Assembly: GCA_963808335.1 (NCBI GenBank)
Contig: CAWEFR010000005.1
Span: 302,683 to 366,682 of the forward strand
Source: Terriglobia bacterium
Lineage (GTDB): Bacteria; Acidobacteriota; Terriglobia; Bryobacterales; Bryobacteraceae
Reading direction: 5' to 3'
DNA length: 64,000 bases
Shown one piece after another: positions 18,895-49,842 of the stretch (positions are counted from its first letter, which is position 1; the number at the start of each line of letters is the position of its first letter). The notes under the pieces were generated by a model, which searched no databases, was not told the origin of the DNA, and saw only the letters and a program-made list of their open reading frames with translations. The position numbers and the translations under genes were made by a program.

Positions 18895-18915
18895 ATAAAG
18901 GTTAGAAGGTTGCTG

Positions 18916-18962: not shown

Positions 18963-19009
18963 TTTTTCAGCACTCTGCTAAGGGATGGAGAGACGGGAAG
19001 GCGAGCTTC

Positions 19010-19196: not shown

Positions 19197-19216
19197 ACTT
19201 TTTCAGAATACCACGA

Positions 19217-24855: not shown

Positions 24856-26153
24856 AATTGAAAACGTTAATCGGATTGGTCGTCGCCGCCGGATCGCTGG
24901 CGCTGGCTGCCTGGGGAGGGGTGACGCTGTTTCGCGCCGCCAACCCGTCGCCCATCGCGACGATTCCCACCACCGCCGTGAAGCGCGGCAACGTCACCTT
25001 CGCGGTGTATTCGCGCGGCGAGTTGCAAGGCGGAAGCTCCGTCATGCTGAGCGCGCCGATGGTAGGCGGCAACGCGCTGGCCATCACTTTTCTCAAAAAC
25101 TCCGGCGATATTGTGAAGAAAGACGAGGTGGTGGTGCAGTTCGACACTACCGATCAGCTCTACAAGCTGCGTGAAGCGCAAGCCGATCTGGCCGAAGCGG
25201 AAACCAAAGTGGTCCAGGCCAACGCGCAGATGAAGGCTAAGGAAGAGGAAGACACGTATGCGCTGCTGAAGGCTCGCGCCGATCTGAATCAGGCGGAGCT
25301 CGAAGCGCGCAAGAATCCGCTGGTCGGCGCAATTCAAGCGAAGGAAGCAGATCTCGCGGTGAGAGCCGCGCGTGAAACGGTGGCGCAGCTCGAACGCGAC
25401 ATGCCGAATCGCCTGGCGACTTCCAAAGCGGGCGTCGAGATTCAGGAAGCCGCGCGCGCCAAAGCCAAGGTGCAGGCGGAGACCGCGCAGAAGAACATCG
25501 ACATGATGACGCTGCGCGCGCCGCGCGACGGCTACGTCAGCGTCCAGACCAATACGCAGACCAATATTTTGTACGGCGGCATGATCCTGCCGCTGCTTCA
25601 GGTGGGCGACACGATCCGCGCCGGCATGGCGGTAGTGCAAATCCCCGACCTGGAACATTGGGAAGTAATGGCGCACATCGCCGAGGCCGATCGCGGCCAC
25701 CTGGCCATCGGCGAACCGGTGCGCATCGCGGCCGTCGCGCTGCCGGATCATCCCTACTCGGGAAAAATCAAAGATCTGGGCGGCACTTCCGGCCCGCCGT
25801 GGGAGCGCCGCTTCGATTGCCGCGTTTCCGTCGATAATCCGTCGCCGCTGCTGCGTCCGGGCATGACCGCGAACCTGGTGATCACCGCGGAAACCATCCA
25901 CAACGCGCTGTGGATTCCCGCGCAGGCGTTGTTCGAATCCGACGGGCGCCAGTTCGTTTACATCCGCACGCCGCAGGGTGGATTCGCCACGCAAGATGTA
26001 AAACTGGTCCGCCGCAGTGAAAGCCAGGTGGTGCTGACGGGCCTCAACGAAGGCCAGCAGGTCGCGCTGGCGAGTCCGGACCGGCTGAAAGAGAAGGAAC
26101 AGAAACAGGACAAGAAGGCTCCCGCTTCCGTGACGCAAGCTTTGCCCCAATGA
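24852..26153 (+). CDS. HlyD/MFP-family periplasmic adaptor (MacA-like)
   Basis: N-terminal TM helix, coiled coil, LRAPRDGYVSV. 4-nt overlaps with the genes on both sides. Confidence 0.8.
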   Translation: MKLKTLIGLVVAAGSLALAAWGGVTLFRAANPSPIATIPTTAVKRGNVTFAVYSRGELQGGSSVMLSAPMVGGNALAITFLKNSGDIVKKDEVVVQFDTTDQLYKLREAQADLAEAETKVVQANAQMKAKEEEDTYALLKARADLNQAELEARKNPLVGAIQAKEADLAVRAARETVAQLERDMPNRLATSKAGVEIQEAARAKAKVQAETAQKNIDMMTLRAPRDGYVSVQTNTQTNILYGGMILPLLQVGDTIRAGMAVVQIPDLEHWEVMAHIAEADRGHLAIGEPVRIAAVALPDHPYSGKIKDLGGTSGPPWERRFDCRVSVDNPSPLLRPGMTANLVITAETIHNALWIPAQALFESDGRQFVYIRTPQGGFATQDVKLVRRSESQVVLTGLNEGQQVALASPDRLKEKEQKQDKKAPASVTQALPQ

Positions 26154-27403
26154 CGCTGGTTCGCTATCTCGCCGATATTCCGCGCGCGTTCGATAATCTG
26201 CGCGCGCAAAAAACGCGCACGGTGCTGACCGCGCTGGGAATCGTGTTCGGCGTCGGCTCGGTGATCGGCATGCTCGCCATCGGCGCGGGCGCGCGTGAAG
26301 AATCGCTGGCATTCATCGAACAATTAGGCGTCCGCAACGTGCTGGTGGAATCGATCCCGGCATCGAGCCTGCAAGAAATTCAACAACGGCGCCGCTCCTC
26401 GCCCGGGCTGAGCGAGCGCGACGTGCGGATTCTCGAAGCCAACGTCGAATCGCTCGAAACCTTGTCGCCGCGCCGCACCCTGCATCCGGCGCGAGTGCTG
26501 CCCAAGCCCTCGCAATCGATTCCGAACGTGAATGGCGTGCGCCCGTCGTATGCCGCAATTCACAATCTTCGATTGTCGGAAGGACACTTCTTTTCCTCAC
26601 GCGACGACACTTCGAGCGCAGCGGTGTGCGTGCTCGGCGATCGCGCCAAGGTGAGTCTGCTCGGCTACGGACCGGGCGCTACGGGCAAGTTCGTCAAAGT
26701 GAACGATACCTGGCTCGAAGTGGTGGGAGTGCTGGCGCCGCAAGTCGCATCCAGCGTGAAGAGCGCGCACACGGAGGATCGCGACAACCTGGTTTACGTT
26801 CCGTTCAACACCTTTCAATATCGATTCTGGGACCAGACTTCGTTCATGGTGAAGGACGATCTGGACGGCATCGACCTGCGCCTGAAGCCGGCGGCGGACA
26901 GTGTTCGCGCGGCGGAAGTGGTGACGGCGATTCTGAACTCGACGCATCGCAACACCGAAGATTTCACGGTGACGATTCCGGCCGCGCTGCTCGCCCAGCA
27001 GCAGAAGACGCAGACGATTTTCACTTACGTAATGGTGGCGATCGCGGCGATTTCGCTGCTGGTGGGCGGCATCGGCATCATGAACATCGTTCTGGCCACG
27101 GTGATGGAGCGTACGCGCGAAATCGGCATCCGCCGCGCGACGGGAGCTCGCCGGAGCGACATCGTGCGCCAGTTCTTGGCGGAAAGCGTGCTGATCTCGG
27201 TGGGCGGCGGGGTATTGGGAATCGGCTTCGGCCTGGGATTATCGTGGCTGATCGCGCGCACGGCGGAATGGAAGACGATTGTAACGCCGTATTCTGTGAT
27301 CATTGCATTCTCGGTATCGGTCCTGGTGGGAGTGGTGTTCGGAATTTACCCGGCGGTAAAAGCGTCGCGGATCGATCCGATCGAAGCGCTGCGGTACGAA
27401 TGA
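26150..27403 (+). CDS. MacB-type ABC transporter permease (MacB_PCD + FtsX), no ATPase domain
   Basis: RAQKTRTVLTALGIVFGVGSVI, large periplasmic domain, C-terminus GIMNIVLATVMERTREIGIRRATGARRSDI...YPAVKASRIDPIEALRYE. Confidence 0.85.
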   Translation: MTLVRYLADIPRAFDNLRAQKTRTVLTALGIVFGVGSVIGMLAIGAGAREESLAFIEQLGVRNVLVESIPASSLQEIQQRRRSSPGLSERDVRILEANVESLETLSPRRTLHPARVLPKPSQSIPNVNGVRPSYAAIHNLRLSEGHFFSSRDDTSSAAVCVLGDRAKVSLLGYGPGATGKFVKVNDTWLEVVGVLAPQVASSVKSAHTEDRDNLVYVPFNTFQYRFWDQTSFMVKDDLDGIDLRLKPAADSVRAAEVVTAILNSTHRNTEDFTVTIPAALLAQQQKTQTIFTYVMVAIAAISLLVGGIGIMNIVLATVMERTREIGIRRATGARRSDIVRQFLAESVLISVGGGVLGIGFGLGLSWLIARTAEWKTIVTPYSVIIAFSVSVLVGVVFGIYPAVKASRIDPIEALRYE

Positions 27404-29366: not shown

Positions 29367-30401
29367 TCAGGATTTCGCCGGGACATGCCGTTTAGCCGGC
29401 CGCGAGAAACGAATGTTTTGCACGATCACCTGTGTATGGATGAGCTGTTGCAACGCCTCGAATCCGACCATTGCAAGGACAGAGAGCGTCAACCCGCGCG
29501 TCCGTTCGAAGAACTCACGCCACGTCCAAGTGACGGTCGCTTTGAGATCTTCAAATCGACAAGTACCTAAAGCGACGTCGATGACTGGAGTTCCATGCAC
29601 CAAGGCGTTTCGTACCTGACGATCGATGCAGCCGACGACCGGATCGAGACTTTTGTGCCGGCCAGCCATAGCCAGAAGATTGTTCAGGTTTAGACTTTTC
29701 CACTCCGCCCACGTACGAGGTCGTCCTTCGGCGTTTTCGGCGCAGAGCAAGAGAACGCGTAACCGCGTCTCGAAGACGCCGGCTGAAAGCGTGTACTCAT
29801 TTTGGAGTTCGAGTAGCCATCGATCGGTCATCCTCTTGGGCGGTTCCGCTCGAAATCGTCGGCATGCGGTTTGAAGCAGCCGCACTGAATGGACATATCG
29901 TCGCGCATCGCTAGAACCAGACCATTCATCGAGCCCTGCGAAAATCTGTGCCGGAGCAGCGTGCGTGTATAGATGCACGAGAAAACCGCAGAGGGCGCTC
30001 CGGATCTCTTGGTAAGCCGGCAATTGAGCCCACTTAGCGCGCGGCGGCTCCGCTGCCTTGGCAGCCATTCGGAGAAGCGCTTCCCAGGAGTCTTCACCTA
30101 GACGCAGCCTCCGTCCGCCGGCGCGGAGCACGAATGCCATAAACTGCTCGAGGGCGGCGCAACGCTCGAGGTCTGCGGCGGGATTGCCTTTGAGTTCTTC
30201 CAGCTTTTGAAGGGACGGTGAAGTCGAACGCAGAAGTCGGTCGATCTTCTTTTCGAGGCCCGCCTTGTCGCGTGCAGAAAGGCGCGGAAGTGGGCGGCCA
30301 AACATCGAGGCCAGTTCGTTCCCGAGTAGCGGGAGAGCTCCGATCAGACCGCTCCGAAGTTCCTCCAACTCGGGGCTTAGATTCTTGGGCAGTTTCTTCA
30401 T
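29367..30401 (-). CDS. Hypothetical alpha-helical protein with a C-terminal HEPN-like Rx4H motif
   Basis: Most plausible start is MKKLPKNLSPEL; the ORF is open up to 30581. C-terminal IDRQVRNALVHG fits Rx4-6H. No family recognised. Confidence 0.4.
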   Translation of the reverse strand: MKKLPKNLSPELEELRSGLIGALPLLGNELASMFGRPLPRLSARDKAGLEKKIDRLLRSTSPSLQKLEELKGNPAADLERCAALEQFMAFVLRAGGRRLRLGEDSWEALLRMAAKAAEPPRAKWAQLPAYQEIRSALCGFLVHLYTHAAPAQIFAGLDEWSGSSDARRYVHSVRLLQTACRRFRAEPPKRMTDRWLLELQNEYTLSAGVFETRLRVLLLCAENAEGRPRTWAEWKSLNLNNLLAMAGRHKSLDPVVGCIDRQVRNALVHGTPVIDVALGTCRFEDLKATVTWTWREFFERTRGLTLSVLAMVGFEALQQLIHTQVIVQNIRFSRPAKRHVPAKS

Positions 30402-30815
30402 CGGTGCAAACCAAGTGACCCGCTTATTGTCCTGCCGCAAAAGGGGCCAAAGCAATTGCCAACGCGAGCGGGAAGCTGCTCCAGGTTCTGTCAGGCAGCT
30501 TAGCAAGCCCTTTCGGCAAACTCCGAGCCCAGATACCGCTCCAACACGCAGGAGCGAACGCTTCGCGACGACTTCTCCCATCTGAAGCTCGTGGCGTCAT
30601 CAATTCAGGTAATGGGACGAGGTGCGGTGTGGTTTTTGGAGCGGTCGAATGAGGCTGCATCTCCGACCAACTCTCTAGCCGCCGTGGTTAGCGCCCTAAC
30701 CCAACCGCCCTCGGCCTGTAATCAACGGATATGACGGCCGAAACCCGGTATCATGATGATTCCGCATCCGATCAGAATTTGATGACGCGAGTGCAAGGGT
30801 TTAATCGCGCAACAC

Positions 30816-33769
30816 ATGAGTCTCCACGCCTTCAATCAGCGGATTCTCGCCGAGGATCTTGTCCGGGTCCGCCGTCCGGACGACCGGGAACGCTATGCGG
30901 CTGCGCAGCGCCAGGCGCGCATCGATCCAAACCCCCACCAGATTGACGCGGTAATCTTTGCGCTTCGACGTCTCCGCGAAGGCGGCTGCATTCTCGCAGA
31001 CGAGGTTGGCCTGGGAAAGACGATTGAGGCCGGCCTGGTCATTGCGCAAAGCCGAGCGGAAGGCGCGCAGCGCATCCTGCTGATCGTGCCCAAGTCGCTG
31101 ATCGGTCAGTGGCAGGGCGAGCTCTTAAACCTATTCGGCATCCAGGCACGTGAGAACGATGCGAGCTTCTTCGCGCCCGGCGTGTATCTGGTCGGCCGGG
31201 AATTCGCGGGCAGCGAGCGCGGCGCGACCCCCCTGGGCGCCGTCCCGCCCTTCGATCTCGCCGTGATCGACGAAGCGCATGAGATCTTCGCCGGACTGCA
31301 CAAGAGATACGGGCGCGACGGGATCTACGACGAAAGCTCGGATGAAGCCCTGATGGCACACCGAGTGCGCGGCTTTCTGCGTTCAACGCCGGTGCTGCTG
31401 CTCACTGCGACGCCGATGCAGAACTCCCTCGCCGAACTGTGGGGCCTGGTGCAGTACGTGGAGCCCACGGGCACTCTGCTCGGGGATATCACGACGTTCC
31501 GCGAAGTGTTCTGCGATGAGGACGATCGAACATTGGTTCCCGGCCAGGAGCACGAGCTTCAACGACGTCTCGCGATCGTTCTCCAGAGGACTTTACGCCG
31601 TCAGGCCCAGGAGTTTCTCGACCGGCCCTTCACCCAACGACGCTGCAGATTGTACGAATACGCGATGAGCGACGCTGAGCGGTCGCTCTACGACGACGTG
31701 ACCGAGTACCTTCTGGAACCGTCCCTGTATGCATTCGCCGGCCGACAACGGCGGCTTTTGTTGATCGGGTTCCACCGGCGCATGGCTTCGTCAATCCCCG
31801 CCCTGGCCGCAAGCCTGGAGAATGTCGCCGGCCGTCTCCGTCGCCTGCAAGCAGGTTTACGCTCCGACGACACCGTGATCAACGTGCTCCGGGATCTTGA
31901 GGAGGAGGACGAGAACGACGAGCATTCCGAGGAAGCGGCCCCGCCTGATCGATCGCGCAACACTCGCGGCCGAGCTGGTCCGCGTCGAGGGTTTCGTCGA
32001 CCGCGCGCGATCGCTGCCGAATGATGCCAAGGCACGCTCATTCCAGGAAGCCATCAAGGTGATTCTGGATTTGGGGCGGGACGGTCGCGGCAGCGGCAAG
32101 GCCGTCGTGTTCACTGAGTCGATCACCACCCAGGAGTACTTGCGGCGCCTGCTGCTGGCCATCGGCCTCGGCGATGAGGACATCACCTTGTTTCGCGGCG
32201 TCAACGATCACGAGCGTGCCGGCCAAGCACTGGCGCGGTGGCAGCAGGAGGAAGGCTCCCGCTTTGCGCCGGGAGCCAAACCGAGCCGCGAGGTGGCCGT
32301 GCGGCTCGCACTTGTGCACGAGTTCCGCACGCGCTCGAAGGTTCTCATCTGCACCGAGGCGGGCGCAAAAGGGTTGAACCTGCAATTTTGCGAGACGGTT
32401 ATCAACTATGACTTGCCCTGGAATCCGCAGCGCATCGAACAGCGCATCGGGCGCTGTCATCGGTACAGCCAGCAGCGTGATGTCACCGTGGTCAACTTCA
32501 TCGCCAGGGACAATGAGGCGCATCGGCTGACGTTCGAAATTCTGAGCCAGAAACTGGATCTGTTCGGTAAAGTGCTCGACGCGTCCGACCATGTCTTGCA
32601 TGAGCCGCGGACGGACGCTCCCGAGATATTGGTGTCGGCTCTATCGGTCGAATTCGAGAGCGACCTCCGCAGCATCTACAGCCGATCCCGCACGCTGGAC
32701 GAGGTCACGCGCGAGATTGCCGCTCTGCGGGACAAGATTTCAGAGCGCAGGGACGCTTACGAAAAGGAATACGAGCGGACATCGCAAATCATCGAGTCGC
32801 GGTTCGATGAGAACGTGCGAAAAGTGTTCAAGCGCTTGCGCGAGGACCTGCCCGACAGCCTTGCTGATTTCGACCGGGATCTCGCCGAGCTCGTGGATGG
32901 ATACCTCACCACATGCGCCGTCGCGTACCGCCGTTCTGACGAGGCTGGGCGGGTGGTGTTCGATTTGGCGCCCGGCGCTGCATTGCCCGTTGAGATCGGG
33001 GATGGCCGGCGATTTGCGACGGGGGACGCAAGAGGACTGACCGACGCCGAATCTTTGAACCTCGTACATCCGCTGGTTCACGCTGCGATCGCAAAGGCTC
33101 GAACATGGGCAGGTGGTGGTGCGGTCACGCTGCATCTGCCTCCAGACGCTTCTCCAGACCTCGCAGCCCTCGCTGGAAATGAGGGCCTTATTTGCGTCGT
33201 GCTGGTGGATTATCTTGGCTTCGAGCCGGTTCAGCGGCTCATCGCGGCGGCGGTCGTTTCACGGCGCCCCAATCGATCCATCGCTCGCCGCCAAAATCGT
33301 GCGCTTGCAGGCAACCGACGGCCCGGTATTCAAGGCCCCTGTGGACGCGCAGTGGCTCGATGACGCGGTGGACGAAGCCGTGTTCGTCGACCAGCGACAA
33401 GTCGAGGAAGGCGAGCAGAAGCACTTCGAGCAGGCCATCGGTCAGCTTGAGCGGTTCGTCGAGGACAAAATCCTGGTGTGCCGCCGGGAGCGAGCGAGCA
33501 TCGCTGAAAAGCTCCGGGCCGCTCGGGCTCGACGTGATGAGATTGTCGGTTCCACCGCGCGAGATCGGATCGAGGCGGAGATCTTGAAACTGGCAACCAG
33601 GGAAGAGAGTCTCGAACGCCGGATTGGCGCATTGGAATCCAGAGAGGACGAGGTTTACAGAAAATGGCGCGACGAATACCACGAGCTTCGTTACCGGGCG
33701 CCGACGGTGACCCGGCTGTTCCAGGCGGCGTTCAAGATCGCCGCACCGAATCCGGAGACGTCGTGCTGA
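30816..33769 (+). pseudogene. SNF2-family helicase (~984 aa) with a long coiled-coil C-terminal extension; two frame breaks as assembled (~31940, ~33255)
   Basis: ILADEVGLGKTIEAG, VIDEAHEIF, LLLTATPMQNSL, TEAGAKGLNLQFCETVINYDLPWNPQRIEQRIGRCHRYSQ. Confidence 0.85.
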
Positions 33770-34926
33770 GGCTGCTGCACACCGCCGACTGGCATCTCGG
33801 GCGGCGCTTCCCATCGTTCCCCGACGAGGGACAGAAAAAGTTGTCACGGGCGCGCATGGATGTGATCTCGAGGATCCTCGACGTCGCACGCCGCAACGCG
33901 GTAAATGCCGTGTTGTGCGTTGGGGACATATTCGACGATGCGGACCCGGCCCCGGACTTTTGGGAAGGGCTTGCCAGGACGTTCCGAAACCATGCTGGTC
34001 AGCATCCGCCGCTCTTTTTGATTCCTGGCAATCACGACCCTCTGACGCCGGAGTCAGTGTGGGCGCCGGGTCACGCTTTTCGAGCACGGCTTCCCGAGTG
34101 GGTGCACGTCGTCGACCGTGATGATTTCATGTATGAGCTGGGGCCTAACGCGGTGTTATACGCGCGGCCGTGCCGGTCGAAGGCAGGCGAGAACGATCTG
34201 GCGATGGCGCTGCCGGCGCGCGAACCTGGCGATGAACGGCTCCGCATCGGTTGCGTCCACGGTTGCACATTTGACATTGACGGTTACCAGACGAACTTTC
34301 CTATTCGCCGGGATGCAGGCGTGCAACGCGGACTGGATTATCTCGCAATAGGCGACACACATTCGTTCCGCGACGTTACCGAGAACCTGTCTGTTCCGAC
34401 AGTATATCCGGGCGCTCCGGAACCCACGAGCTTCGACGATGCCGGCGCCGGCCGCGTCGCGCTCGTCGCATTATTCAGGCGCGGTTTGCGTCCCCGCGTC
34501 GATGCCGAGCCGGTTGCCTTCTGGCGGTGGATCGACGTGCGGTGCCATGACATGAATGAGCTCCGCAGCTTATTGACCACACCGGATCTCGACCGCCATG
34601 TCGTCAGACTTCATCTCGATATGACCGTCTCCCTGTCCGAGGAGAGTGAGGTCGAGCGGATACTGCGCGACCTCCAGGGGACCGACGCAACGCACGGCCG
34701 CGTTGGCGTTTTGATGGTGGACCGTGCGGGCCTGCGGTTGCAAGTGGGTTCAGGCGACGCTTTTCCCGATGACCTCCCGCCGGTACTCAAAGACACCGTG
34801 GCGCGACTCGACCGGCTCATCGCGGACGCGACAGACGAATCTGAGAAATCGAGGGCAACACGGGCACTGGCGCATCTTTACAAACTGCTGCAGAGCCATG
34901 ACGCGAATGGTGGGCGCGGTTTATGA
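33763..34926 (+). CDS. SbcD/Mre11-like calcineurin-fold metallophosphoesterase
   Basis: The GTG start overlaps the helicase stop. Motifs: LLHTADWHLG, VLCVGDIFD, LIPGNHD, GCVHG. Confidence 0.8.
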   Translation: MLRLLHTADWHLGRRFPSFPDEGQKKLSRARMDVISRILDVARRNAVNAVLCVGDIFDDADPAPDFWEGLARTFRNHAGQHPPLFLIPGNHDPLTPESVWAPGHAFRARLPEWVHVVDRDDFMYELGPNAVLYARPCRSKAGENDLAMALPAREPGDERLRIGCVHGCTFDIDGYQTNFPIRRDAGVQRGLDYLAIGDTHSFRDVTENLSVPTVYPGAPEPTSFDDAGAGRVALVALFRRGLRPRVDAEPVAFWRWIDVRCHDMNELRSLLTTPDLDRHVVRLHLDMTVSLSEESEVERILRDLQGTDATHGRVGVLMVDRAGLRLQVGSGDAFPDDLPPVLKDTVARLDRLIADATDESEKSRATRALAHLYKLLQSHDANGGRGL

Positions 34927-37900
34927 AGCTCCATCGGCTGCGCATCACGAGTTTTGCTGCGATCGGGAACGTCGACGTCGAGTTCGGGCCGGGACTTAAT
35001 GTGCTGTACGGACCCAACGATCTCGGGAAGTCTTCGGTGGTGGCCGCCATCCGCCTGGGATTGCTCCTTCCTCACACGTCAACACATTGTGAGCAGTATG
35101 TCGGATGGACGGGTGCCGACGACCCGATTGTCGAGATGACGTTCCAGACCGAAGAGCAACGGATCTGGCGCATAAGGAAGCAGTTCGGCAAAGGCGGCTC
35201 GTCACTTCTGCAGGAATCGAAGAATGGACAGGACTTCGATGATGTGGAGCGCGGGAGGAAGGTGGACGGGAAGCTGCGGGAGATTCTGCGTTGGGGCATT
35301 CCGGAGCCCGGCGGCTCGGGCGGCGCTAAGGGATTGCCGACAAGCTTCCTCGCGACAGCACTCTTGTCCCCCCAAGACGACGTGAGCGCCGTGCTTCGCG
35401 AAAGCTTGCAGGGCGATCCGACCGGCAGCGGTAAAGAACAGATCGCCGCTGCTTTGCAGGCGGTCGCGCAGGACCCGCTATTCCTCGCCCTGCTCAGAAA
35501 TACGCAGGCGCAACGGGACAAGGCGTATACCGACAAGGGTGCCAAAAAAACCGCCAAGGGCAGTGTGTTCAAGGACGCCGCCGAGCGACTGAATGAAACG
35601 AGGGAAGAGAAGGATAAGCTTCACAGGATCGTGGCTGAATCAGAAGGCGCAGAGAGGCAGTTGCGGGATCTGACCGATAGACGCGCGCAGAGGCAGGAGA
35701 CATTAGCTGCGGCTGCGGCCGTCGTCGCAAGCCTTGAGCAGCTTGCTTCGCAGGCCACGTGTCGCTCGGTCGCGGCGGAACAGGTCCGGATCGCACAGGA
35801 AGAGGTAGCTGCGTATCCGAAGGACCGGGACCGAAGTGGAGATCGGGGAGCGCAAGGTAGCGGAGCTGGTTAGGAAGATCACTGAGGCAGAGCAGGCGCT
35901 GCAAGTCGCGCGAGACGAGCAAGGGAAGGCAGCCGCCGCACTCGATGCTGCCGAAGAAGCCGCCCGCGCGGAAGGATCAGATCCAGGCGTGACCGACACC
36001 GTTGTTCGTCAGCAGCTCGAACTTCGAAGATCTGCGGCTGATCAGGCTGCACGCGAGGCACAGCAACGGATCGATGCTGCTTTGGCTGCCCAGAAGCTTA
36101 TTGAGGCCGTCGGTGCAGCGGAACTCGATCTTCGGGACCAACGGGCAAAAGCCGCCGGGGCGCTCGAATCCGCTGCCAAAGCGACAGCGACGGAAAAGGT
36201 TACTGAGAGTGGGCTTCAGCGATGCGATTTACTTGAGCGTGCTCTAGATGTTCACGCTGCCGATAAGCAGGTCGCCGATGGTCAGGCAGATGTCGACAAA
36301 GAGGCTGCTCTCCAGGGCCGCCTGGGGACTACTTCAGGCGAACGGGCGGAATTGGCCGAACAGCGCGCTGCGATTACAGTTCCGGCTCATGGGGCGCTCG
36401 GACCCATGCGCAGGCTCGCCACTGAGTTGGCGGCCGCGCGGGGCGCGCTCGACGTCGGCTTTGTGGTGACGGTGAGCCCGAAAGGTACGCCTCGACCTGC
36501 GCGTTCGAAAGGATGGGAAGAAAGTTGAGGCGAAGTCCACCGCCAAACCCCTGGAGATCGAAGCGGGCGCGGAGGTTGAGATCGCTATCGCGGACGTTGC
36601 AACCGTGCACGTTCGCGGTGGTCGACGAGAAGCGCAAGAAAAAGCCCAGGCCCTGGAGAATAACTGGGGCCGAGACGTAGAGCCGCATCTCGTTGCCGCC
36701 GGCGTCGCAGACCTGGACGGCCTCGACGCCAAGATCGCGGAGTGTCGAGAGCTGGATGCCGGCATCAAGGCGAAGGATGCCGAAGTCGAGTCGCTGCGCA
36801 CCCAGATTGCCGCGCTTACCGGTGCGGCGGCGGCGTTGCGCGAAGCGTCGAAGAGGGCGGAGACCTGCCGGGCCGCGCTCGGAGACGTACAGCTTGACAC
36901 CCTGGCCGCTGATCTCAAGGCGCTTGGCGCTGATCCAATCGTCGGGTTACGAAAGCGGCGACAAGAGCTGTTAAAGGAGGCCGAGGGTGTGCGCGCTATC
37001 GCCAACGATGCTGTCAACGCCCAGACCCTTGCCGACGAACGCACGCGGCACTCACAGTCGGCGTTGGATGCGGCCGTCGCATCACGGGATGCCACGCTGC
37101 CGGCCTTCCCTGAAGGCGTGGATGCCGCATTGGTCGCCGCAAGGGCTGCGCTCGCGGCTGGTATTGCCGAGAAGGAAAAGGTCGCCGCTGAGTTTGCTTC
37201 CCTGGAGCGTACGATTGCCGAGCGGAAAAAACGTATCGACGCGGTCCTGGGCAACGCTCGCACAAATGCCGCTAAGGCCACGAGTGCCGTCGATAAGGCG
37301 CAAGGAGACCTCACGACGGCAAAGACCGACCACGCGTTGCACGACGGCCGGCTCATCGAATTGCGAAAACTGCGCGATGCCGAGAATCTTGGGGACGCCG
37401 AAGCGAGGCTTCTTGAAAAGACTGGCAGTCATGCGGCGTTGCCCGTTCCTGATCGGCTCGTCACCAATGACGAGGTCACCACCGCCCAAAATATCGCTGC
37501 GGGCATCAGGTTAGATCTCGAAGGCATCGATCGAGAGATCCACCGGGCGCATGGCGCTCTCGAACAAGTAGGCGGCTCGGTGGCCCGTGAGCGGCTGCAC
37601 GACGCGACTGAAGCTTTCGAGTTGGCGGAGCGCCAGGAGAGGGAAATCGAGGCGGAATACGAGGCGTGGAGACTGCTGCTCGATCAAATGAAGGAGGCCG
37701 ACGCTGCCCAGGCGAGCAATCTTGGACAGGCGCTCGTACCGGCCATCGCTGGTCGGTTCCAGGAGTTGACCCAGCGACGCTACCAAACTGTCCAGATCAC
37801 CGCTCAATTGGCCACAGAAGGTGTTGTGGTCTCGGGTGCGTTGAGGCAAGCGGGACAGATTTCGGTCGGCACCCGCGAGCAATTGTCGACTTTGTACCGG

Positions 37901-38158
37901 TTGTCGCTCGCGGAATATTTGAAGACGGCGATTGTCCTTGATGACCAGCTCGTGCAGAGCGACGACAGCCGGATGGACTGGTTTCGCGCGTTGCTTGCCG
38001 AGAAGGCCCACAGTTTCCAGATCGTAGTATTCACATGCCGACCCGGCGACTACCTTCCAGCAAGCGCGCTTGTGCCCCAGGGAAGCGCCGTTCACGCAGA
38101 CACGGATGGCGGGTTCATACGAGCGGTCGACCTCGGGCGGGCGCTCCGCCGCCGCTAG
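34923..38158 (+). pseudogene. SbcC/Rad50-like SMC-type ATPase (~1078 aa); two frame breaks as assembled (~35815, ~36485)
   Basis: ATGA overlap with the upstream gene. Walker A LNVLYGPNDLGKSSV. About 700 aa of Ala/Glu/Arg-rich coiled coil. C-terminal head ISVGTREQLSTLYRLSLAEYL..AIVLDDQLVQSD. Confidence 0.8.
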
Positions 38159-38666
38159 CTTAGCTGTCGCCAGTAGCGAAGTGCGGGCTCGAAAAGGTCG
38201 GAGTCGAAGGGTACTGGGTGCGCACGACCACAGAACACGCCGATACAGGTTCGTTCTTCGCAATCAACTTGGTCCTCGTTGGGCTGGCTGCGACAGATCT
38301 CGCGCCTTTGATGAGCTGCTGCACTTCTTGATGGAGGGGAAGGACCGGCTGGCGGAAGACCTCTTGCGCCCGTTACCTCCAGAAGCCAGAAGACGAAATG
38401 TGCGGGGCGCTGTTAACGGATTTTAGAGCGGAAGCGAGCCGCCAGAGCTAATTGGTTGAGGATTCCGGACTTCCGTGGCGGCGTACCTGTCGATGCCTAT
38501 CAGCCTGAACTTCTGCGGAACGTCTTCCCTAGAACCTAGAGGAGTACGAGGCGATCCGACGGGTCTCGCTCCAAAAGCGGCTGAACCCGAAAAGGGGGAT
38601 TCAGGCCGTCGCGTGACGTTGGTGTGGGACACCAGAGCAGTGTTCACCCGCTTGCGGCGCCGACCC

Positions 38667-39905
38667 TTATTCGACAAAACTGAGGGCAGGCCAATCCGGG
38701 ATACTGTTCTCCGAGATAGTAAGCTCGTTCAATACCAGATTCCACATTCGCTCGAAGTCGTTCGCATCTGCGGGGCGAGTGCCGTGAGCAAGCCAGGATT
38801 GGTTCCTCTTTTCAAGGGTTGGCTTGAGCCGATCGTAAACCTCCGGACGTTTGTGGTCTTCCACGAAGGGGCTATACTGCAATGCCGTGAAAACCTTGGC
38901 ACAACTCAACTGGAGGCGGTTTCCTTCGATAAGATCGTCCGGAAAAGTTGATTTCAACTTGGCGGCCACACCTTCGTCGAGCGTATTCAACTGGATACGA
39001 CCGGAAATGGCACCGAATGCAGCGTGAAGACGGTTCTGAGCGAACAGTTCCACGGCGCGGTACAGGCGAGTGATCGCGTCATCGTGATGCCCTTGGCGAT
39101 GCCGCCGGCGCGCGTTAGCCAGCAACTCCAAAAGAGCGCGAGGATGATCCTTCTGACCACGAGCCTCGGTGTCCAATGCTTGAAAGTGCTCTCGTAGCGC
39201 GCGCAGCCAGGCGAGGGCTTTGCTGTTACCCTGATGCTCAAACGCGATCTCGACCAGGCGTTGGAACTGTCCCAGTTCGTTCGGCAGTCCTTTGAATTGG
39301 AAGAGATCCAGTCTGGCGAGTACACGACAGAGGCGGGCGAAAGCCCTTAGCGTCTCGCTCCTCCCGGATGCAATCTCGGCAGCTTGATCGAGCAATTCGG
39401 ATGCTGCCTCAACGTGGCCCTGTTCATAAAATCGAGTCGCCAGTTCGCGCTGACGGATCGCAAGCTGTATCCAGGGATTCGGTCCGGCGACGGGTTTCTC
39501 GGTACCAGTAATCACGGTCCCCAGACCACTCTTCTCCCTGTCGCCAGAAATATAGTGGTAGTTGGGAATCCACTCGACGGCCGCCAATGTGAGGGCAGCG
39601 CTCATCGGCTTGGTGCCTCCGGTGAGATCGAAATAGACATTCTCAGAGCGCAACCGCCGGCGATCCAGCCACCCGCTAATGGCCGGCCGAATTTGCTGAT
39701 AGCACCTGTTCAGGTCGTCCACGTCGTCGAGTCGCACACACTCCCACTGCAATTCATAACCAATTGATGGGAGCACGACCTGCTCGACCTGCGGTTCGGA
39801 CTTCTCCGACACCACAAACAACGCGCACTGGACCGGCTGGCGCTTCAACGCGTCGATTACCGGGGCAGGAGTACCACCCAAGCTGAAGATCGCTCCACGT
39901 GGCAT
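38667..39905 (-). CDS. CARF + HEPN protein (Csx1/Csm6-like; resembles the TIGR02710 family)
   Basis: N-terminus IFSLGGTPAPVIDAL...YFDLTGGTKPMSAAL (CARF). C-terminus KRNQSWLAHG (HEPN Rx4-6H). Last gene of the cmr operon. Confidence 0.7.
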   Translation of the reverse strand: MPRGAIFSLGGTPAPVIDALKRQPVQCALFVVSEKSEPQVEQVVLPSIGYELQWECVRLDDVDDLNRCYQQIRPAISGWLDRRRLRSENVYFDLTGGTKPMSAALTLAAVEWIPNYHYISGDREKSGLGTVITGTEKPVAGPNPWIQLAIRQRELATRFYEQGHVEAASELLDQAAEIASGRSETLRAFARLCRVLARLDLFQFKGLPNELGQFQRLVEIAFEHQGNSKALAWLRALREHFQALDTEARGQKDHPRALLELLANARRRHRQGHHDDAITRLYRAVELFAQNRLHAAFGAISGRIQLNTLDEGVAAKLKSTFPDDLIEGNRLQLSCAKVFTALQYSPFVEDHKRPEVYDRLKPTLEKRNQSWLAHGTRPADANDFERMWNLVLNELTISENSIPDWPALSFVE

Positions 39906-39918
39906 GATCGCCTTCCTC

Positions 39919-41970
39919 TCAAGAAACATATTCCCAGGCAGGATCCTTGGGATTAGCAATTTTGATCTTGAGTTTGACGGTGTCACCCGGTTTTGCATCG
40001 AGCGGCACCGCCTGGGAATTCTGAATGGCACCGGCGAGTCCGGACACAGTCTCTTGAGCCTTCCAGCCCCCCTTTCTCGTTTTCTCCTCCAGCAGAACAC
40101 CCTCTACGACGACGCCGACTTTGAGCACGGAAGCGCTAGGAGGCGGGGCCATCGGCGGGGCGATTGACGGCGGCGGAGGCGCCTGAAACGTCTTCATGCG
40201 TTGTGCAATGTTCGTAGCCAGCTCAGTGATAAAGGCTGAGAGAAACTCCCGATTCTTTTCGAAGCCACGCAACTTCTCGGACGGAAACGCGACAACGTTG
40301 GTCTTGAACCCGGAATCGCTCCGGGCCAGATGGAAATGAACCGGAGAAGCGTGCCGATTCAGTTGTTGCAGTTCCGAATCCGGCTCCTTCATTCGGCGCG
40401 GAAGGCCTAGCGCCTTCTTGTCGATTTGGTGCTTGTAACTCTGTGCGAAAGTTTGGATGGCGTCCCCGAGCTGATCGAGCGCATTCCAGGGATCGCGGCC
40501 CGGAAGGTCTATGAACGTAGGACCGAGCATATTTTCGAGACTCGACGAGTAATGCAGGAACCCGAATTGTCTGGTCTGGTAGCCGACAGCCGCCCTGACT
40601 TCCACCGCACGCTGCTTGCATTCTTCGAGACCGGCGAATCCAGTATCTGCCTCGATGCAGCCGAACCCCTTCCTGGACTTTGAGCCGAGTCCACCGAAGT
40701 TTGAAAGCAGCCACAAGGCGGCTCGCGCCTGATCGATCGCTTCCTGGCTGGAGAGTTGGCCGGTTGGATTCGCAATAATGGTGAGCCTCCACTGCGAACC
40801 GGGCTGCACGTAGTGCCGGGCTCTATCTTTCTCATCCATCCCAAAAGTGATGTATGAGAGGCCCTGGATGGCTTTTGCCCGCACTGGCTTCGCCAATCTC
40901 CATCGCGTCGCTTCGTCGGTTTTCCGGTATCGAACAGGAGAGATCTCTCCAATTGGTTCAAGCGAAATGCTGACTGCCGAAGCGAGGTCCTTTTCTTTGC
41001 CGCTGAGGGTAGAACTGACCGTTCCGCCCCAGATCAACCGCTCAAGTTTCAGAAGTTCGGCCAACGCGAGATGTCCAGCGTGCATTGTGCGCCACCACCA
41101 ACGGAGCAAACCGCGTAGCGTCGTCGGTCGCAGTGTACAATCCTCCGGGCCTTGGAGTGCGCCGGCTAGAAAGGCTGGGCTGACCAGCGTCAGCGTGCTG
41201 GTAAAGACGGAACGGCCGCTCGTAGCGGGCAGAGTGGCATCTGTCGTGAAGCGCCCGTAACCTGCGTTGGTCTTCGCTCCAGCGCCGAGCCAAGCGACCG
41301 CCCCGTCGATCCAGGACTGAGCCAAATCCAACAGCCGGTCGTTGTTGTCTGATCTACTACATGCGGCGACGCGGAACTCGAATTCCGTTCGCGGAGCGAC
41401 CGCGAGGAAGTTGACCGGAACTGGATTCTCCCAGTCACCCGGAGGACCGTCGCCACGGTAGTAGTCGCCGTGATGGCTATTTACAATGTCGACGATCAGT
41501 TTCGGCCACTGGACGGGCAGGGCGTCGAAAAAGACCACGCCTCCGGCTGTACCGTCTTTGTTACTGCTTGTGTCTCTTCCGAAGACCGCCTCAATGTCGG
41601 CGGCAGTGGCCCGAGCCACGTTGCGGGCATAGAAACGCGCCATGCCCTTGAGACCCGTTCCCGGCAGGTAGGCAAAGCCATAGACCGGGTGCAGGCTGAG
41701 GCCCGCATTTTCGAACGACCCCACCCGCGATAGATGCATTGTCAGCGGCCCTGCGGTTCGATGCTTCCAGCTCCTCAGTTTGAATTGAGCGAGTGCCTTC
41801 TCCAACCGCTGGCGGACTCGCGACAATAACACCTCATCGTGGTGCGCCTTCGTCACCCGTTCGAGTTGCTTGCGTTGGAAGTCCTTCGGCGACGATGTCT
41901 GCCAGCATTCATGCCACTTGTCCAACAGAAGACCCGGATGCATCTCCGTGTCCGCAGGCAACGCGATCAT
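39919..41970 (-). CDS. cmr6: Cmr6-Cmr1 RAMP fusion with a Pro-rich linker and extra C-terminal beta-rich domain
   Basis: Cmr6 part: GLLLDKW, LHPVYGFAYLPGTGLKGMAR, G-rich loop GAGAKTNAGYGRF. Cmr1 part: LVSPAFLAG, LRPTTLRGLLRWWWRT, FGGLGSKSRKGFG. Tail: APPPPSIAPPMAPPPSA followed by VGVVVEGVLLEEKTRKGGW...KPGDTVKLKIKI. Confidence 0.7.
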   Translation of the reverse strand: MIALPADTEMHPGLLLDKWHECWQTSSPKDFQRKQLERVTKAHHDEVLLSRVRQRLEKALAQFKLRSWKHRTAGPLTMHLSRVGSFENAGLSLHPVYGFAYLPGTGLKGMARFYARNVARATAADIEAVFGRDTSSNKDGTAGGVVFFDALPVQWPKLIVDIVNSHHGDYYRGDGPPGDWENPVPVNFLAVAPRTEFEFRVAACSRSDNNDRLLDLAQSWIDGAVAWLGAGAKTNAGYGRFTTDATLPATSGRSVFTSTLTLVSPAFLAGALQGPEDCTLRPTTLRGLLRWWWRTMHAGHLALAELLKLERLIWGGTVSSTLSGKEKDLASAVSISLEPIGEISPVRYRKTDEATRWRLAKPVRAKAIQGLSYITFGMDEKDRARHYVQPGSQWRLTIIANPTGQLSSQEAIDQARAALWLLSNFGGLGSKSRKGFGCIEADTGFAGLEECKQRAVEVRAAVGYQTRQFGFLHYSSSLENMLGPTFIDLPGRDPWNALDQLGDAIQTFAQSYKHQIDKKALGLPRRMKEPDSELQQLNRHASPVHFHLARSDSGFKTNVVAFPSEKLRGFEKNREFLSAFITELATNIAQRMKTFQAPPPPSIAPPMAPPPSASVLKVGVVVEGVLLEEKTRKGGWKAQETVSGLAGAIQNSQAVPLDAKPGDTVKLKIKIANPKDPAWEYVS

Positions 41971-42422
41971 GATTTGCCGCCCTTGGCAGCATCCGCGAAG
42001 CGCACCAGCCATTCTAGGTACGCGAGCGCCTCAGCCGTGAGTTGCCGCAGGTCTGCCGCCGTGCCGTCTTTGAACTGAATCATTAGCGCATCATCGCTTG
42101 CCTGATTGATCAATTCCCGTTGTCGGCACCAAGCGGTCAAAGCTGCGACCACTTCGCCACCTTCCTTGGCGCGCATGAACGCCACCGTCTGTCCCAGGCC
42201 CGACGCCCGGATCCGGATCGGCATCTTCTTCGCTGGGCCAGCGAACTTATCGTCAAATTTCTTGAGTTCCGCCTTTTCCAGATCCGCGGGGGAAAGCCTC
42301 TTTCCTTTCCGCTCTAGCTCTTCTCGACACTCAGTTGCCAGGCGCTTCTTTCCTTCTTGCACCTCGTCCCACGCGTGCCGTGCGCGCTGTTGAGCCAGGG
42401 TCTGTGGTGCCATCTTAGTCAC
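41967..42422 (-). CDS. cmr5: Cmr5 (type III-B small subunit)
   Basis: 151-aa helical protein. PIRIRASGLGQTVAFM and position between cmr4 and cmr6. Confidence 0.75.
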   Translation of the reverse strand: MTKMAPQTLAQQRARHAWDEVQEGKKRLATECREELERKGKRLSPADLEKAELKKFDDKFAGPAKKMPIRIRASGLGQTVAFMRAKEGGEVVAALTAWCRQRELINQASDDALMIQFKDGTAADLRQLTAEALAYLEWLVRFADAAKGGKS

Positions 42423-43251
42423 CCCCCTTCACTAGGCGGATCGCACAGAGACCCTTGCCCGTCGTCTCGTCCCCACCGATCTGAATAGTCTCGGGCGGCC
42501 GGAAAGCGCCGAGATTCTGCTCGGCTGTGGCCGGTTGGTCACGCCTTCGCGAAGGCGAGGCCAACACAAGAGAGTAGAGGAGGGTTTCCGCTGGCAGAAA
42601 CTCCTGGTAGAAAAGTGCATGCTCCTCCACCGTCTTGGTTTCCTCCTTGAGTTTGATTCGCGCTGTCACTTCGGTGGCATAGGTCGCAAAGTGGGTGAAG
42701 TTCGTATCATCCAGCACGACCAACCGCTTTCGCTCTTCGCTTTCCAAGGCGTCGAAGAAATCGAGAACGGCGAATTTAGCATCGAAGACAAACTCTTCCA
42801 GGATCAGCTTGTTACCGTTGTGAGCACATGGCGATCCTTCCTCAAAGAAGGCGCCTGACTCACCGGGGTCATTGATTTCAGGAAGCGTAATTTGCGCGCC
42901 TACTAGTCCCGAGTCACGTTTCCAACGCTGGATCACTTGTGGGCACGTCACCCAGGCGAAAACGCCCTTGAGACTGCGCACCGGAAATGCAAGGGTTCGC
43001 GCGTCAGTGAACGACAGCGCGCCGGCAGAAGTCCCTTCGTTGTCGCCGGCTCCGAACAAGCGCGGGCGCAGATCTTTTGGCGTGGCCTCCCGAAGAACGC
43101 CCTTGACACTCGATCCGGGAATGACGGGCCAGTTGGTGTGCCGCTCCCGCTGCACCGGCAGATCCACCGCCCCCAGCGCCGTCCCCGAACCGGGGTGTAA
43201 CGGCGTGAGTGCCTGAAGGTACAGAATAGCGCCTACATTATTCGCTGGCAT
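42415..43251 (-). CDS. cmr4: Cmr4 (Cas7-family backbone RAMP)
   Basis: LQALTPLHPGSGTALGAVDLPVQRERHTNWPVIPGSSVKGVLR, FTDARTLAFPVRS, IQIGGDETTGKG. Confidence 0.9.
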   Translation of the reverse strand: MPANNVGAILYLQALTPLHPGSGTALGAVDLPVQRERHTNWPVIPGSSVKGVLREATPKDLRPRLFGAGDNEGTSAGALSFTDARTLAFPVRSLKGVFAWVTCPQVIQRWKRDSGLVGAQITLPEINDPGESGAFFEEGSPCAHNGNKLILEEFVFDAKFAVLDFFDALESEERKRLVVLDDTNFTHFATYATEVTARIKLKEETKTVEEHALFYQEFLPAETLLYSLVLASPSRRRDQPATAEQNLGAFRPPETIQIGGDETTGKGLCAIRLVKGGD

Positions 43252-44296
43252 AGTTCCACGATCCTTTCAAGAAGAAGCCATAGCCCAAACAAACATCTTC
43301 GCGGTCCTCATTCAGACTCCGGACCGTCGGTACGCGGCCCTCGATGAAGAACACAGAACCCGAATCGACCCCGAACCGCGCCGGCTTCGGACCGCCACGA
43401 GCCAAGTCCCACCCGGAGACTGCGTATGGCCCCTCCACGGCTGCCGCCCGGAGTTGCGCATCCGGAATAACATCTGGCTGCCAACCCTTGATAAAGAACC
43501 CGGGGCTCAACAGCAACAGTGACACGCGATCAGCGGAAGCAGCCTCAGGCCACGTTACGAGCGGGACTTTGCGGATGGCGACGTGATGGCGTTCGCCACC
43601 CCAAGCAACAGTGGTTGGAGTGTCGAAGTGGCCCGCCTTGTTTTCCGGCACGTCCGCTTCAGCATAGAAGCCCCAGCCAGGTCTGAGGCGAAGGTTCCGG
43701 GTTGAGTAGATTTCGCCCTCTTTCGACGCGCTGGTATCCGGATCGATGGAGACCCCGGTCCGGTCCTCACGAAGGTAAGACTCGTCGTGGCGACGCACAT
43801 CCTTCGCCTTGAGCGGGCTGTTGCGCAAGTACGCCGTCAACCCCTCGAAGTTGAGCAACTCAGGCCGCTGCTTCGAGGGCTTCTTCCCCTTTCGCCAGAG
43901 CGGGTACATACCAGCGAGCGGTGGCTGCCAGCCGGGGATCATCCGGGCGGCAGGCTGCAGCCGGACAACCTCGCCATCGACAAACCGCAAATCAGCAGGC
44001 GCGGGGATCAATGGTCGTGGCACTGTCCCATCAAGTTCCGCGAGCCAAGGACCGCGGAAGCAGACATCGCCGAGCCACGCCGCCCCAGCGGCGATGAAGG
44101 CCTCGCTCAGGGTCGGCTTCCCTCGCATGGCGGCGAAGTCGGCGTTTTCGCGGTCAAGCAGGAATGTGCGTAGCACTCCAGCCAAAGATTGCGGCGACGG
44201 CAACGACGACTCGCCGGGCAACCCCGCCCCAAACGGTCGGCCGCCACGAAAAAACAAGGTGTCAAGCGGCTCGAATACCAGTCCGATCGTCTTCAT
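43238..44296 (-). CDS. cmr3: Cmr3 (Cas5-like)
   Basis: Start at MKTIGLVFEPLDTLFFRGGRPFGAG...PSPQSLAGVLR. The ORF's upstream 97 codons overlap cas10 and were discarded. Confidence 0.85.
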   Translation of the reverse strand: MKTIGLVFEPLDTLFFRGGRPFGAGLPGESSLPSPQSLAGVLRTFLLDRENADFAAMRGKPTLSEAFIAAGAAWLGDVCFRGPWLAELDGTVPRPLIPAPADLRFVDGEVVRLQPAARMIPGWQPPLAGMYPLWRKGKKPSKQRPELLNFEGLTAYLRNSPLKAKDVRRHDESYLREDRTGVSIDPDTSASKEGEIYSTRNLRLRPGWGFYAEADVPENKAGHFDTPTTVAWGGERHHVAIRKVPLVTWPEAASADRVSLLLLSPGFFIKGWQPDVIPDAQLRAAAVEGPYAVSGWDLARGGPKPARFGVDSGSVFFIEGRVPTVRSLNEDREDVCLGYGFFLKGSWNYASE

Positions 44297-44301
44297 CGCA
44301 A

Positions 44302-49814: not shown

Positions 49815-49842
49815 CGCCGACAACTGAGGGAGTCACGTCGCC

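Follow-up and report, generated by a model that had tools for sequence, protein, structure and literature searches.

What is the task of three consecutive genes, predicted to encode an SNF2-family ATPase, an Mre11/SbcD-fold nuclease and a Rad50/SbcC-like ATPase, that are located at positions 30816-38158 of a 64,000-nucleotide stretch of DNA from a Terriglobia bacterium (contig CAWEFR010000005.1; the whole 64-kb stretch is called the window below)? We moderately favour the answer that this trio is a self-contained, horizontally mobile three-protein machine for the processing of DNA, most likely acting against invading DNA. Full-text literature searches gave no description of an SNF2-SbcD-SbcC defence trio, and it is credible that we are dealing with an apparently unnamed candidate system assembled from known parts.

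Organization of the operon

The initial annotation of the window had placed three genes on the same strand here, and this was borne out by the listing of open reading frames (ORFs) and by family searches. It had treated the genes as intact, with a hint at frame repair; this holds for the nuclease gene, but the SNF2 and ATPase genes are each read as three ORFs, and between 30.7 and 38.3 kb the listing contains seven plus-strand ORFs in place of three genes. The features of the operon are:

30816-33769, plus strand: gene for the SNF2-family ATPase, 983 amino acids after deletion of two inserted bases
30816-32024, 31897-33363 and 33113-33769, plus strand: the three ORFs of the unrepaired SNF2 gene
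33763-34926, plus strand: gene for the Mre11/SbcD-fold metallophosphoesterase, 387 amino acids, unbroken, with a GTG start
34923-38158, plus strand: gene for the Rad50/SbcC-like ABC ATPase, 1077 amino acids after deletion of two inserted bases
34923-35873, 35836-36528 and 36605-38158, plus strand: the three ORFs of the unrepaired ATPase gene
33763-33769, plus strand: GTGCTGA, a 7-nucleotide overlap of the nuclease start and the SNF2 stop (33767-33769), read in the sequence
34923-34926, plus strand: ATGA, overlap of the nuclease stop and the ATPase start, read in the sequence
30582-30815: intergenic stretch 5' of the operon, shared with a divergent orphan gene of 404 amino acids and presumed to hold the promoter

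The three genes are translationally coupled, and the stop/start overlaps that had been proposed at 33763 and 34923 are both exact. The nuclease ORF, which ends at 34926, could start at GTG 33763 or at ATG 33664, and the sequence GGAG is found 6 nucleotides 5' of the GTG. An SNF2/nuclease overlap of the GTGCTGA type is called also in three related loci (L001, L083 and L086) and in a contig from the Joint Genome Institute (JGI), for example with an end at 10007 and a start at 10001, and the ATGA overlap of the nuclease and ATPase genes is kept in related loci. A promoter and terminator scan of positions 30500-38800 gave no σ70-like site, and sites were no more frequent there than expected by chance.

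Predicted proteins of the trio

Two regions inside the genes need separate mention:

32614-33766, plus strand: C-terminal region of the SNF2 protein, residues about 600-983, made up of a long helix, then a beta-rich domain, then a hairpin of helices
36406-36620, plus strand: apex insert of the ATPase, about 70 amino acids, non-helical and beta-rich, at the position of the CxxC zinc hook of Rad50/SbcC

The product of the second gene matches Pfam Metallophos, and the metal-ligand motifs of Mre11/SbcD that had been noticed in it are all present (DWH at 33787, GD at 33922, GNHD at 34027, the H of CVHG at 34252 and GDTH at 34351). These five motifs correspond to D9-x-H11, G54-D55, G89-N90-H91-D92, H166 and G197-D198-x-H200, with Asp in place of the first His in motif V, and in alignments of 20 and 57 sequences each is either invariant or conserved to at least 90%. 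The AlphaFold2 model built from the 57-sequence alignment has a mean predicted local distance difference test score (pLDDT) of 92.6; in it residues 231-320 form a beta-rich domain and residues 340-383 form helices, as in the capping domain and C-terminal helices of Mre11. When the model was compared with the PDB by Foldseek the best 50 matches were all Mre11/SbcD proteins, including E. coli SbcCD head complexes, the longest alignments having about 420 columns against full-length chains. The prediction is thus a protein of the Mre11/SbcD fold in which the two-metal site is complete and is accompanied by a capping domain and two C-terminal helices. Its scores are below the curated SbcD cut-offs, with 69.1 versus 77.65 bits for TIGR00619, 50 versus 450 for PRK10966 and 28 versus 750 for sbcd_Bac, and it has zero matches among the PADLOC v2.0.0 models.

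In the third gene product the N-terminal head is recognized by Pfam AAA_23, AAA_15, SMC_N and AAA_27. The last of these, a family built around YhaN, is barely above its cut-off (24.3 versus 22 bits). In a sequence search of the PDB both the N- and the C-terminal halves of the ATPase head align to Pyrococcus furiosus Rad50. Walker A (35010-35033) is GPNDLGKS at residue 30, the Q-loop is at residues 147-151, the signature (37862-37882) is SVGTREQ at residue 980, Walker B (37931-37945) is IVLDD at residue 1003, the D-loop is QSD and the H-loop is FTCR (38030-38041). Between the head halves are about 740 amino acids of proline-poor, helix-favouring sequence, slightly more than the 700 or so of coiled coil that had been proposed to split the Walker A and B heads; in residues 190-930 A, E, R, K, L and Q make up 61-66% on both sides of the central insert, with few prolines. 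The protein is predicted to carry a split ABC head of the Rad50/SbcC type on a long coiled coil.

It had been suggested that a zinc hook should be looked for after repair of the frame, and no CxxC was found anywhere in the 1077 amino acids; the beta-rich apex insert occupies this position instead. The insert is conserved in 11 of the 12 aligned family members, and a PDB sequence search with it gave nothing significant. The remaining member, L010 from a Rokuibacteriota metagenome-assembled genome (MAG), has a hydrophobic segment at the apex; this replacement, in an ATPase gene at about 3900-8050, is about 40 amino acids long and transmembrane-like, and it recalls the hydrophobic central domain reported for Bacillus subtilis SbcE. 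Walker B has the form hhLDD, with Asp-Asp and not Asp-Glu, in all 12 family members, the most distant of which are about 35% identical, while the H-loop position is Arg in the clade of the window and His in a clade that is about 45% identical.

The product of the first gene matches Pfam SNF2-rel_dom and Helicase_C, and the full ATPase core that had been ascribed to it was found, with motifs I, II, III and VI unbroken (GLGKT at 31008, DEAH at 31269, QRIGRCHR at 32440). Defence models were taken from PADLOC-DB v2.0.0 (2023), and the DrmD model PDLC02619 matches two of the SNF2 fragments (1e-56 and 7e-69). With an intact SNF2 homologue (P0121) the same model is the best profile match, at 5.5e-129 over profile positions 6-655 of 872, and NCBIfam DrmD_b gives 192 and 232 bits on the window protein, versus a cut-off of 950. 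All motor motifs are accounted for, and the protein can be classed by its sequence as a putative DrmD/RapA-like SNF2 ATPase. The tail of about 400 amino acids had also been described as coiled coil, but in the AlphaFold2 model it is a single long helix followed by a beta-rich domain and a hairpin of about 110 amino acids, with a pLDDT of 77-93 over residues 680-980. This C-terminal region is located beyond the aligned part of the DrmD profile, and it has no Pfam match and no significant match in a PDB sequence search. By fold match the nearest solved structure to the SNF2 model is E. coli RapA (8spg, E=2e-20, about 1070 aligned columns, with low TM-scores of 0.33-0.38), followed by the eukaryotic ISWI, SMARCAD1 and CHD1, and this suggests a similar bacterial SNF2 architecture in the two proteins, including the C-terminal domains.

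Frame breaks in the window copy

The breaks were located by comparison with L086, an ENA scaffold with 93.7% identical DNA in which the genes are intact at 983, 387 and 1076 amino acids. The alignment reveals one in-frame difference of a 3-nucleotide repeat and four single-base insertions in the window:

31948, plus strand: inserted A, first SNF2 frameshift, in the context GCCTG[A]TCGATCG; absent from L086
33261, plus strand: inserted A, second SNF2 frameshift; absent from L086 and L088
35810, plus strand: inserted T, first ATPase frameshift; absent from L086
36488, plus strand: inserted C, second ATPase frameshift; absent from L086 and L088

Removal of the four bases gives ORFs of 983, 387 and 1077 amino acids. 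The repaired SNF2 protein is colinear with the product of a 983-amino-acid gene in L003, a Bryobacteraceae MAG, with 90% identity, and the repaired ATPase shows 76% identity to the L003 protein with zero gaps. The repaired sites at 35810 and 36488 have the 7-mer AGGTAGC in common. An analysis of GC content at third codon positions across the window was too noisy for use in mapping the frameshifts.

The four frame breaks are most likely long-read assembly errors and not gene decay, because relatives at 94-98% identity have unbroken genes, all three genes have a ratio of non-synonymous to synonymous substitution rates (dN/dS) of 0.03-0.17 when compared with intact relatives, and the large BREX-type genes downstream, BrxC/PglY, the PDC-S68 helicase and BrxHI, are likewise split. 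All three genes of the trio are under strong purifying selection. The SNF2 and ATPase fragments of the window are on record, exactly as called here, on a 410-kb NCBI/ENA contig, and on other ENA contigs from different strains the SNF2 frame is broken in the same few codons near residue 380, while the JGI copies are full length. In these long-read-style ENA assemblies the break falls in a stretch containing GATCGATCG (window 31930-31990; P0409, P0412, P0414, P0417-P0419), and the recurrent break may be a systematic base-calling error tied to a sequence motif or to methylation. Locus L088, 96% identical and with AbiE, orphan gene and trio in the same order as the window, is an indel-rich long-read contig from a project of this style; over the trio genes it has at least 16 single-base indels, and only the insertion at 31948 is common to it and the window. 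Against L088 the alignment sets the first ATPase insertion of the window at 35807, and L088 has an inserted T of its own 2 nucleotides downstream.

It is somewhat unlikely that the window copy is instead a dead remnant, with real frameshifts in a recently inactivated pseudogene cluster of a decaying defence island. Four breaks within 7.3 kb would fit such a history, as would the split BrxC, PDC-S68 helicase and BrxHI genes. There are no breaks in the cmr genes, AbiE, the HlyD/MacB genes or the nuclease, and errors would therefore be unevenly spread, concentrated in a few large genes, which speaks for decay and against a sequencing artefact. Furthermore, the short-read contig L082, from the same strain, confirms the adjoining 3.3 kb without gaps at 99.97% identity, and ends 19 nucleotides into the SNF2 gene. 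Decay is on the other hand at odds with the kind of change seen, as all four are +1 insertions outside homopolymers and neither nonsense mutations nor deletions are present, and with a dN/dS of 0.03-0.14 against an intact relative and the intact genes of relatives at 95-98% identity. The breaks in the same few codons in several strains from long-read-style projects, with unbroken JGI copies, and the many indels of L088 over the same genes also argue against it. Programmed frameshifting at 31948 was dropped as an explanation, since a slippery or stop context is missing and intact alleles have the same flanks.

Distribution and synteny

The genome survey was a pattern-based scan of one genome per species in 185,579 species, from which 80 loci were kept. 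Twelve of these carry a close relative of the trio, all of them in MAGs. The nuclease is 86% identical in Chthoniobacterales, 90% in Bryobacteraceae and 83% in Binataceae, and about 50% identical in MAGs of Terriglobales, Acidiferrales, Vicinamibacterales, one other Acidobacteriota member, Rokuibacteriota, two Gammaproteobacteria and Myxococcales. The relatives span at least five phyla, and the 83-90% identity among Acidobacteriota, Verrucomicrobiota and Binatota points to horizontal transfer; judged by these sequences the trio has evidently been exchanged between phyla. In metagenomes there are thousands of relatives of the nuclease, the best 120 clusters being 78-98% identical, and yet the family is small, with 138 clusters at 50% identity when E<=1e-30 is applied to 1.84 billion representatives. 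A search of 50,697 phage records gave no homologue of full length.

The synteny of the three genes, which had been proposed as a check, is the same in all loci that span them, and the genes are strictly co-inherited. The order SNF2-nuclease-ATPase is found in L001-L011, L013, L083, L086, L088 and the JGI contig, and also in L085, where the SNF2 gene is called only in part. The short contig L012 has the 3' end of the SNF2 gene, the nuclease gene and the start of the ATPase gene in this order, and L084 starts at the nuclease gene at a contig end. A conserved fourth gene downstream was not found, the 72-amino-acid ORFs in L001 and L085 being unrelated. Core-genome synteny, which had been named as a sign of a DNA repair role, is not what was seen; the trio is patchy, in 12 of the 80 kept loci, and its flanks differ each time. 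A core repair operon is ruled out by this distribution, the identity between phyla and the unrelated flanks.

Within 10 kb of the canonical sbcD loci (L014-L081) there is no SNF2 homologue. Distant relatives with 27-34% identity, many of them carried by plasmids of rhizobia and sphingomonads, consist of a nuclease gene and an ATPase gene with no adjoining SNF2 gene, except that at one remote plasmid pair a separate gene for a helicase is located about 3 kb upstream. It thus appears that the trio arose when a two-gene module of the SbcCD kind gained an SNF2 gene. Plasmids of rhizobia, sphingomonads and Paracoccus commonly carry a gene labelled 'DNA repair exonuclease' paired with one for an 'AAA family ATPase' of about 880 amino acids (104 records). 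Two of these pairs, on the Bradyrhizobium japonicum plasmid p1S06B (L089) and on a Rhizobium leguminosarum plasmid (L090), have nucleases 27-29% identical to that of the trio, and the L089 pair is near genes for a dCTP deaminase and a helicase of 1138 amino acids.

Flanking genes

The trio had been described as located between AbiE with a HEPN-like orphan gene and a type III-B CRISPR module. AbiEii and DUF6088 are indeed found on one side and the type III-B cmr/csx1 module on the other, but the HEPN label did not hold for the orphan, a 404-amino-acid ORF without a family match. The other features of the window are:

4757-4831, plus strand: tRNA-Cys, the sole tRNA in the window, about 23 kb from the AbiE edge of the island
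22583-27403, plus strand: three consecutive genes for HlyD-family membrane-fusion proteins, then a MacB-type permease gene, translationally coupled
29367-30581, minus strand: 404-amino-acid ORF between AbiE and the trio, with no Pfam or PADLOC family
38667-47687, minus strand: type III-B module, with Csx1/NE0113, Cmr2, Cmr3, Cmr4, probable Cmr5, a 697-amino-acid protein with two RAMP domains and a Csm6-type HEPN protein
49361-62717, plus strand: BREX-like cluster, with BrxC/PglY, PDC-S68 superfamily 1 (SF1) helicase, PglXI and BrxHI
49361-49762, 50374-52257 and 52115-52681, plus strand: BrxC/PglY, in at least three pieces
54083-55888 and 56101-57114, plus strand: PDC-S68 SF1 helicase, split
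57196-59859, plus strand: PglXI methylase
59888-61777 and 62061-62717, plus strand: BrxHI SNF2 protein, split

The island in the window holds at least four systems, the large genes of which are frame-broken like those of the trio, and the HlyD/MacB genes form its apparent housekeeping edge. No CRISPR array, cas1, cas2 or cas6 was found in the 64-kb window. The 404-amino-acid ORF is kept beside AbiE in L082 and L088; in L086 AbiE is present, and a dynamin-like gene, a transposase gene and a DEAD helicase gene replace the ORF.

The flanks differ at every trio locus. A known or candidate defence system (AbiE, type III-B, Zorya, Hma, Gabija or HEC-05) is located within 10 kb at about half of the loci, which looks like a far higher share than a random gene would have. 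One relative locus has both Hma and Gabija within 10 kb, L083 has Zorya type I, a relaxase gene and a ParA-like gene beside the trio, and L085 has genes for a TIR protein and TrbI near it. Hma-like SNF2 and methylase genes are found near the trio in L003, a PDC-S37/Hhe-like giant protein and matches to RecD/relaxase-type helicases in L005, a Ppl-like ATPase in L006, and HEC-05 with a UvrD helicase in L008. Several trio loci also carry conjugation genes, TrwC relaxase and TrwB coupling-protein domains are among the products of flanking genes, and L001 has a TerL gene near the trio. A Ku domain was also seen in the pooled flanking genes, with its source locus not assigned; LigD is the sole repair-gene neighbour observed.

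Proposed function and alternatives

If the trio acts against invading DNA, the nuclease and the ATPase should form an Mre11-Rad50-like complex, probably 2:2, held together by the novel apex domain and not by a zinc hook, and the targets of this complex would be free DNA ends or replication intermediates shaped like hairpins or forks. The Asp-Asp of Walker B, with Arg for the H-loop His in the clade of the window, might lead to slow hydrolysis and thereby to a long-lived, switch-like clamp. The SNF2 motor would translocate on duplex DNA, and could either deliver the nuclease along the target or strip off end-protecting proteins, the outcome being degradation of linear phage DNA or incoming plasmid DNA. 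The trio includes no methyltransferase or specificity subunit, suggesting that self and non-self are probably told apart by DNA ends or replication structures, by analogy with SbcCD and the SbcCD-derived Lamassu. We further propose, tentatively and with less confidence than a role against invading DNA as such, that the trio is a second and independent recruitment of Mre11-Rad50 into immunity apart from Lamassu, in which the nuclease has been kept as effector, the apex domain is new, the altered ATPase site may slow hydrolysis, a DrmD/RapA-like SNF2 protein has been added, and phage or plasmid DNA is destroyed from ends or replication structures independently of modification.

Several observations weigh against a defence role. 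The assignment to defence is plausible by guilt by association, and complex formation, substrate choice and the role of the SNF2 protein are inferred; the SNF2 model was built on a shallow alignment and has moderate overall confidence (mean pLDDT 69), the core being of low confidence. At roughly half of the loci none of the larger neighbouring genes is a recognised defence gene, and some flanks are metabolic. In L007, an Acidiferrales MAG, a full LigD gene (phosphoesterase, ligase and primase-polymerase) is located at 17946-20597, 3.5 kb downstream of the trio. Annotation labels the remote two-gene relatives found on plasmids of rhizobia as DNA repair exonucleases, and in the Bacillales loci L035, L053, L054, L075 and L077 sbcD-sbcC directly follows addA on the same strand.

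The LigD gene, the annotation of the plasmid pairs and the Bacillales gene order would all suit an accessory module for double-strand-break repair or recombination, that is, an end processor of the SbcCD/SbcEF type with its own motor, which would assist a mobile element or the host in processing broken or incoming DNA and would not serve to destroy invaders. Both the nuclease and the ATPase do belong to the Mre11-Rad50 superfamily, and the hook-less SbcE/SbcF beside an SbcD-like nuclease is described in PMC2811018 as acting in break repair and competence. We nevertheless hold such a module to be unlikely: the distribution is patchy with 83-90% identity between phyla, the flanks are always different and often include defence or conjugation genes, genes for non-homologous end joining adjoin the trio in only 1 of the 12 genome loci, and no member retains the Walker B glutamate, which would be unusual for a processive repair ATPase.

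We consider it decidedly improbable that the trio serves the mobile element that carries it, by competition between elements, by the stabilisation or exclusion of rival plasmids or integrative and conjugative elements, or by countering host nucleases, a role that would fall outside host immunity proper. The relaxase and ParA-like genes of L083, TrbI in L085, the RecD/relaxase-type helicase matches in L005 and the TrwC and TrwB domains agree with such a service, as do TerL near the trio in L001, a transposase near that of L086 and the frequent presence of more distant relatives on conjugative plasmids, whereas in the window and at several long-contig loci the trio is located in chromosomal-looking islands with no transfer genes in view, and the phage records hold no full-length homologue. 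Functionally such a service overlaps with defence, and sequence alone hardly allows the two to be told apart.

If the trio is a defence system, it offers a clean natural experiment on the conversion of DNA repair machines into immune effectors. The proposal for Lamassu is that its Rad50-like sensor drives unrelated effectors after loss of the Mre11-type nuclease, whereas the trio keeps the full nuclease and adds a motor of the chromatin-remodeller type. Eukaryotic Mre11-Rad50 and SNF2 remodellers cooperate at DNA ends, and the trio echoes that pairing. There would then be a modification-independent system sensing ends or structures that is common in soil Acidobacteriota, Verrucomicrobiota and their relatives, in which immunity is little studied, and structural studies of a hook-less Rad50 would have a compact complex of three proteins to work with. 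As a repair module the trio would still be an unusual, horizontally traded variant of SbcCD.

Comparison with known systems

By gene content the trio had been judged to be none of Lamassu, Wadjet, Zorya, Druantia, DISARM or Gabija, and the model comparison agrees with this, the nuclease having no PADLOC match and the other two proteins matching only generic DrmD, LmuB and GajA parts. Matches of the ATPase to the Gabija, Septu and PARIS models (GajA, PtuA and AriA) are limited to the first 45-90 residues, in the Walker A region, and none of the 14 PADLOC families matching the intact ATPase at E<=1e-5 is a Jet model of Wadjet. Partial coverage of the models together with missing partner genes rules out DISARM, Lamassu, Gabija, Wadjet, Septu and PARIS.

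Lamassu is, according to PMC12663957, evolved from SbcCD and senses DNA ends, and like the trio it has a Rad50/SbcC-derived coiled-coil ATPase and is found in defence islands. The best PADLOC match of the ATPase is the LmuB model (1.4e-16, 59 bits), but only over residues 1-422, in the N-terminal half, and the coiled coil of the trio is far longer. Neither LmuA nor LmuC is conserved beside the trio, which keeps a complete Mre11-type nuclease where Lamassu is proposed to retain only a C-terminal remnant of SbcD (LmuC), and Lamassu has no SNF2 protein.

A DrmD-like SNF2 protein has been recruited also into IetAS (ietHAS), and its ATPase motifs are needed for defence, as stated in PMC13069673. 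In class 1 DISARM, the DrmD of which may be compared with BrxHI, ZorD, HmaA and IetH, the likeness consists in the DrmD model being the best SNF2 profile match. The differences are that the DrmD_b score totals only about 423 bits versus 950, that the alignment reaches no further than profile position 655 of 872, that the C-terminal 380 amino acids are distinct, and that no conserved drmA, drmB, drmC or methylase partner is found at the trio. RapA, the Swi2/Snf2 protein of E. coli that functions in recycling of RNA polymerase, has the solved structure closest to the SNF2 model, but the trio protein scores only 67 and 62 bits versus a cut-off of 576, and RapA is a core housekeeping gene. The N-terminal domain of RapA appears to be missing from the trio SNF2 protein.

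Bacillales addA-sbcD-sbcC resembles the trio in having a helicase gene directly upstream of sbcD-sbcC, in the same order of helicase, nuclease and ATPase. The helicase is, however, the SF1 AddA helicase-nuclease of core recombination, which is unrelated to SNF2, the sbcD and sbcC genes are canonical, with SbcC proteins of 1119-1148 amino acids, and there is no SNF2 homologue within 10 kb.

SbcE/SbcF (YhaN/YhaO) of B. subtilis was compared with the trio by architecture. In PMC2811018 an SMC-type ATPase resembling SbcC is described that lacks CxxC, has a unique central domain, is encoded beside an SbcD-like nuclease and has roles in break repair and competence. The trio likewise has a hook-less ATPase with a central domain of its own and an adjoining SbcD-like nuclease. 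The central domain of SbcE is hydrophobic, while that of the trio is beta-rich in all members but L010, and SbcE/SbcF is a conserved chromosomal repair and competence factor that has no SNF2 partner.

With SbcCD/Mre11-Rad50 the trio has in common the order of nuclease and then ATPase, the Mre11 fold with its metal-ligand motifs, capping domain and C-terminal helices, and the split ABC head on a long coiled coil. It differs from SbcCD in that a beta-rich apex domain takes the place of the CxxC hook, in that Walker B has DD and not DE in all members, and in its scores, which are under every curated SbcD, SbcC and Rad50 cut-off. Finally, unlike SbcCD, the trio is accessory and horizontally transferred, and an SNF2 gene is joined into its operon.

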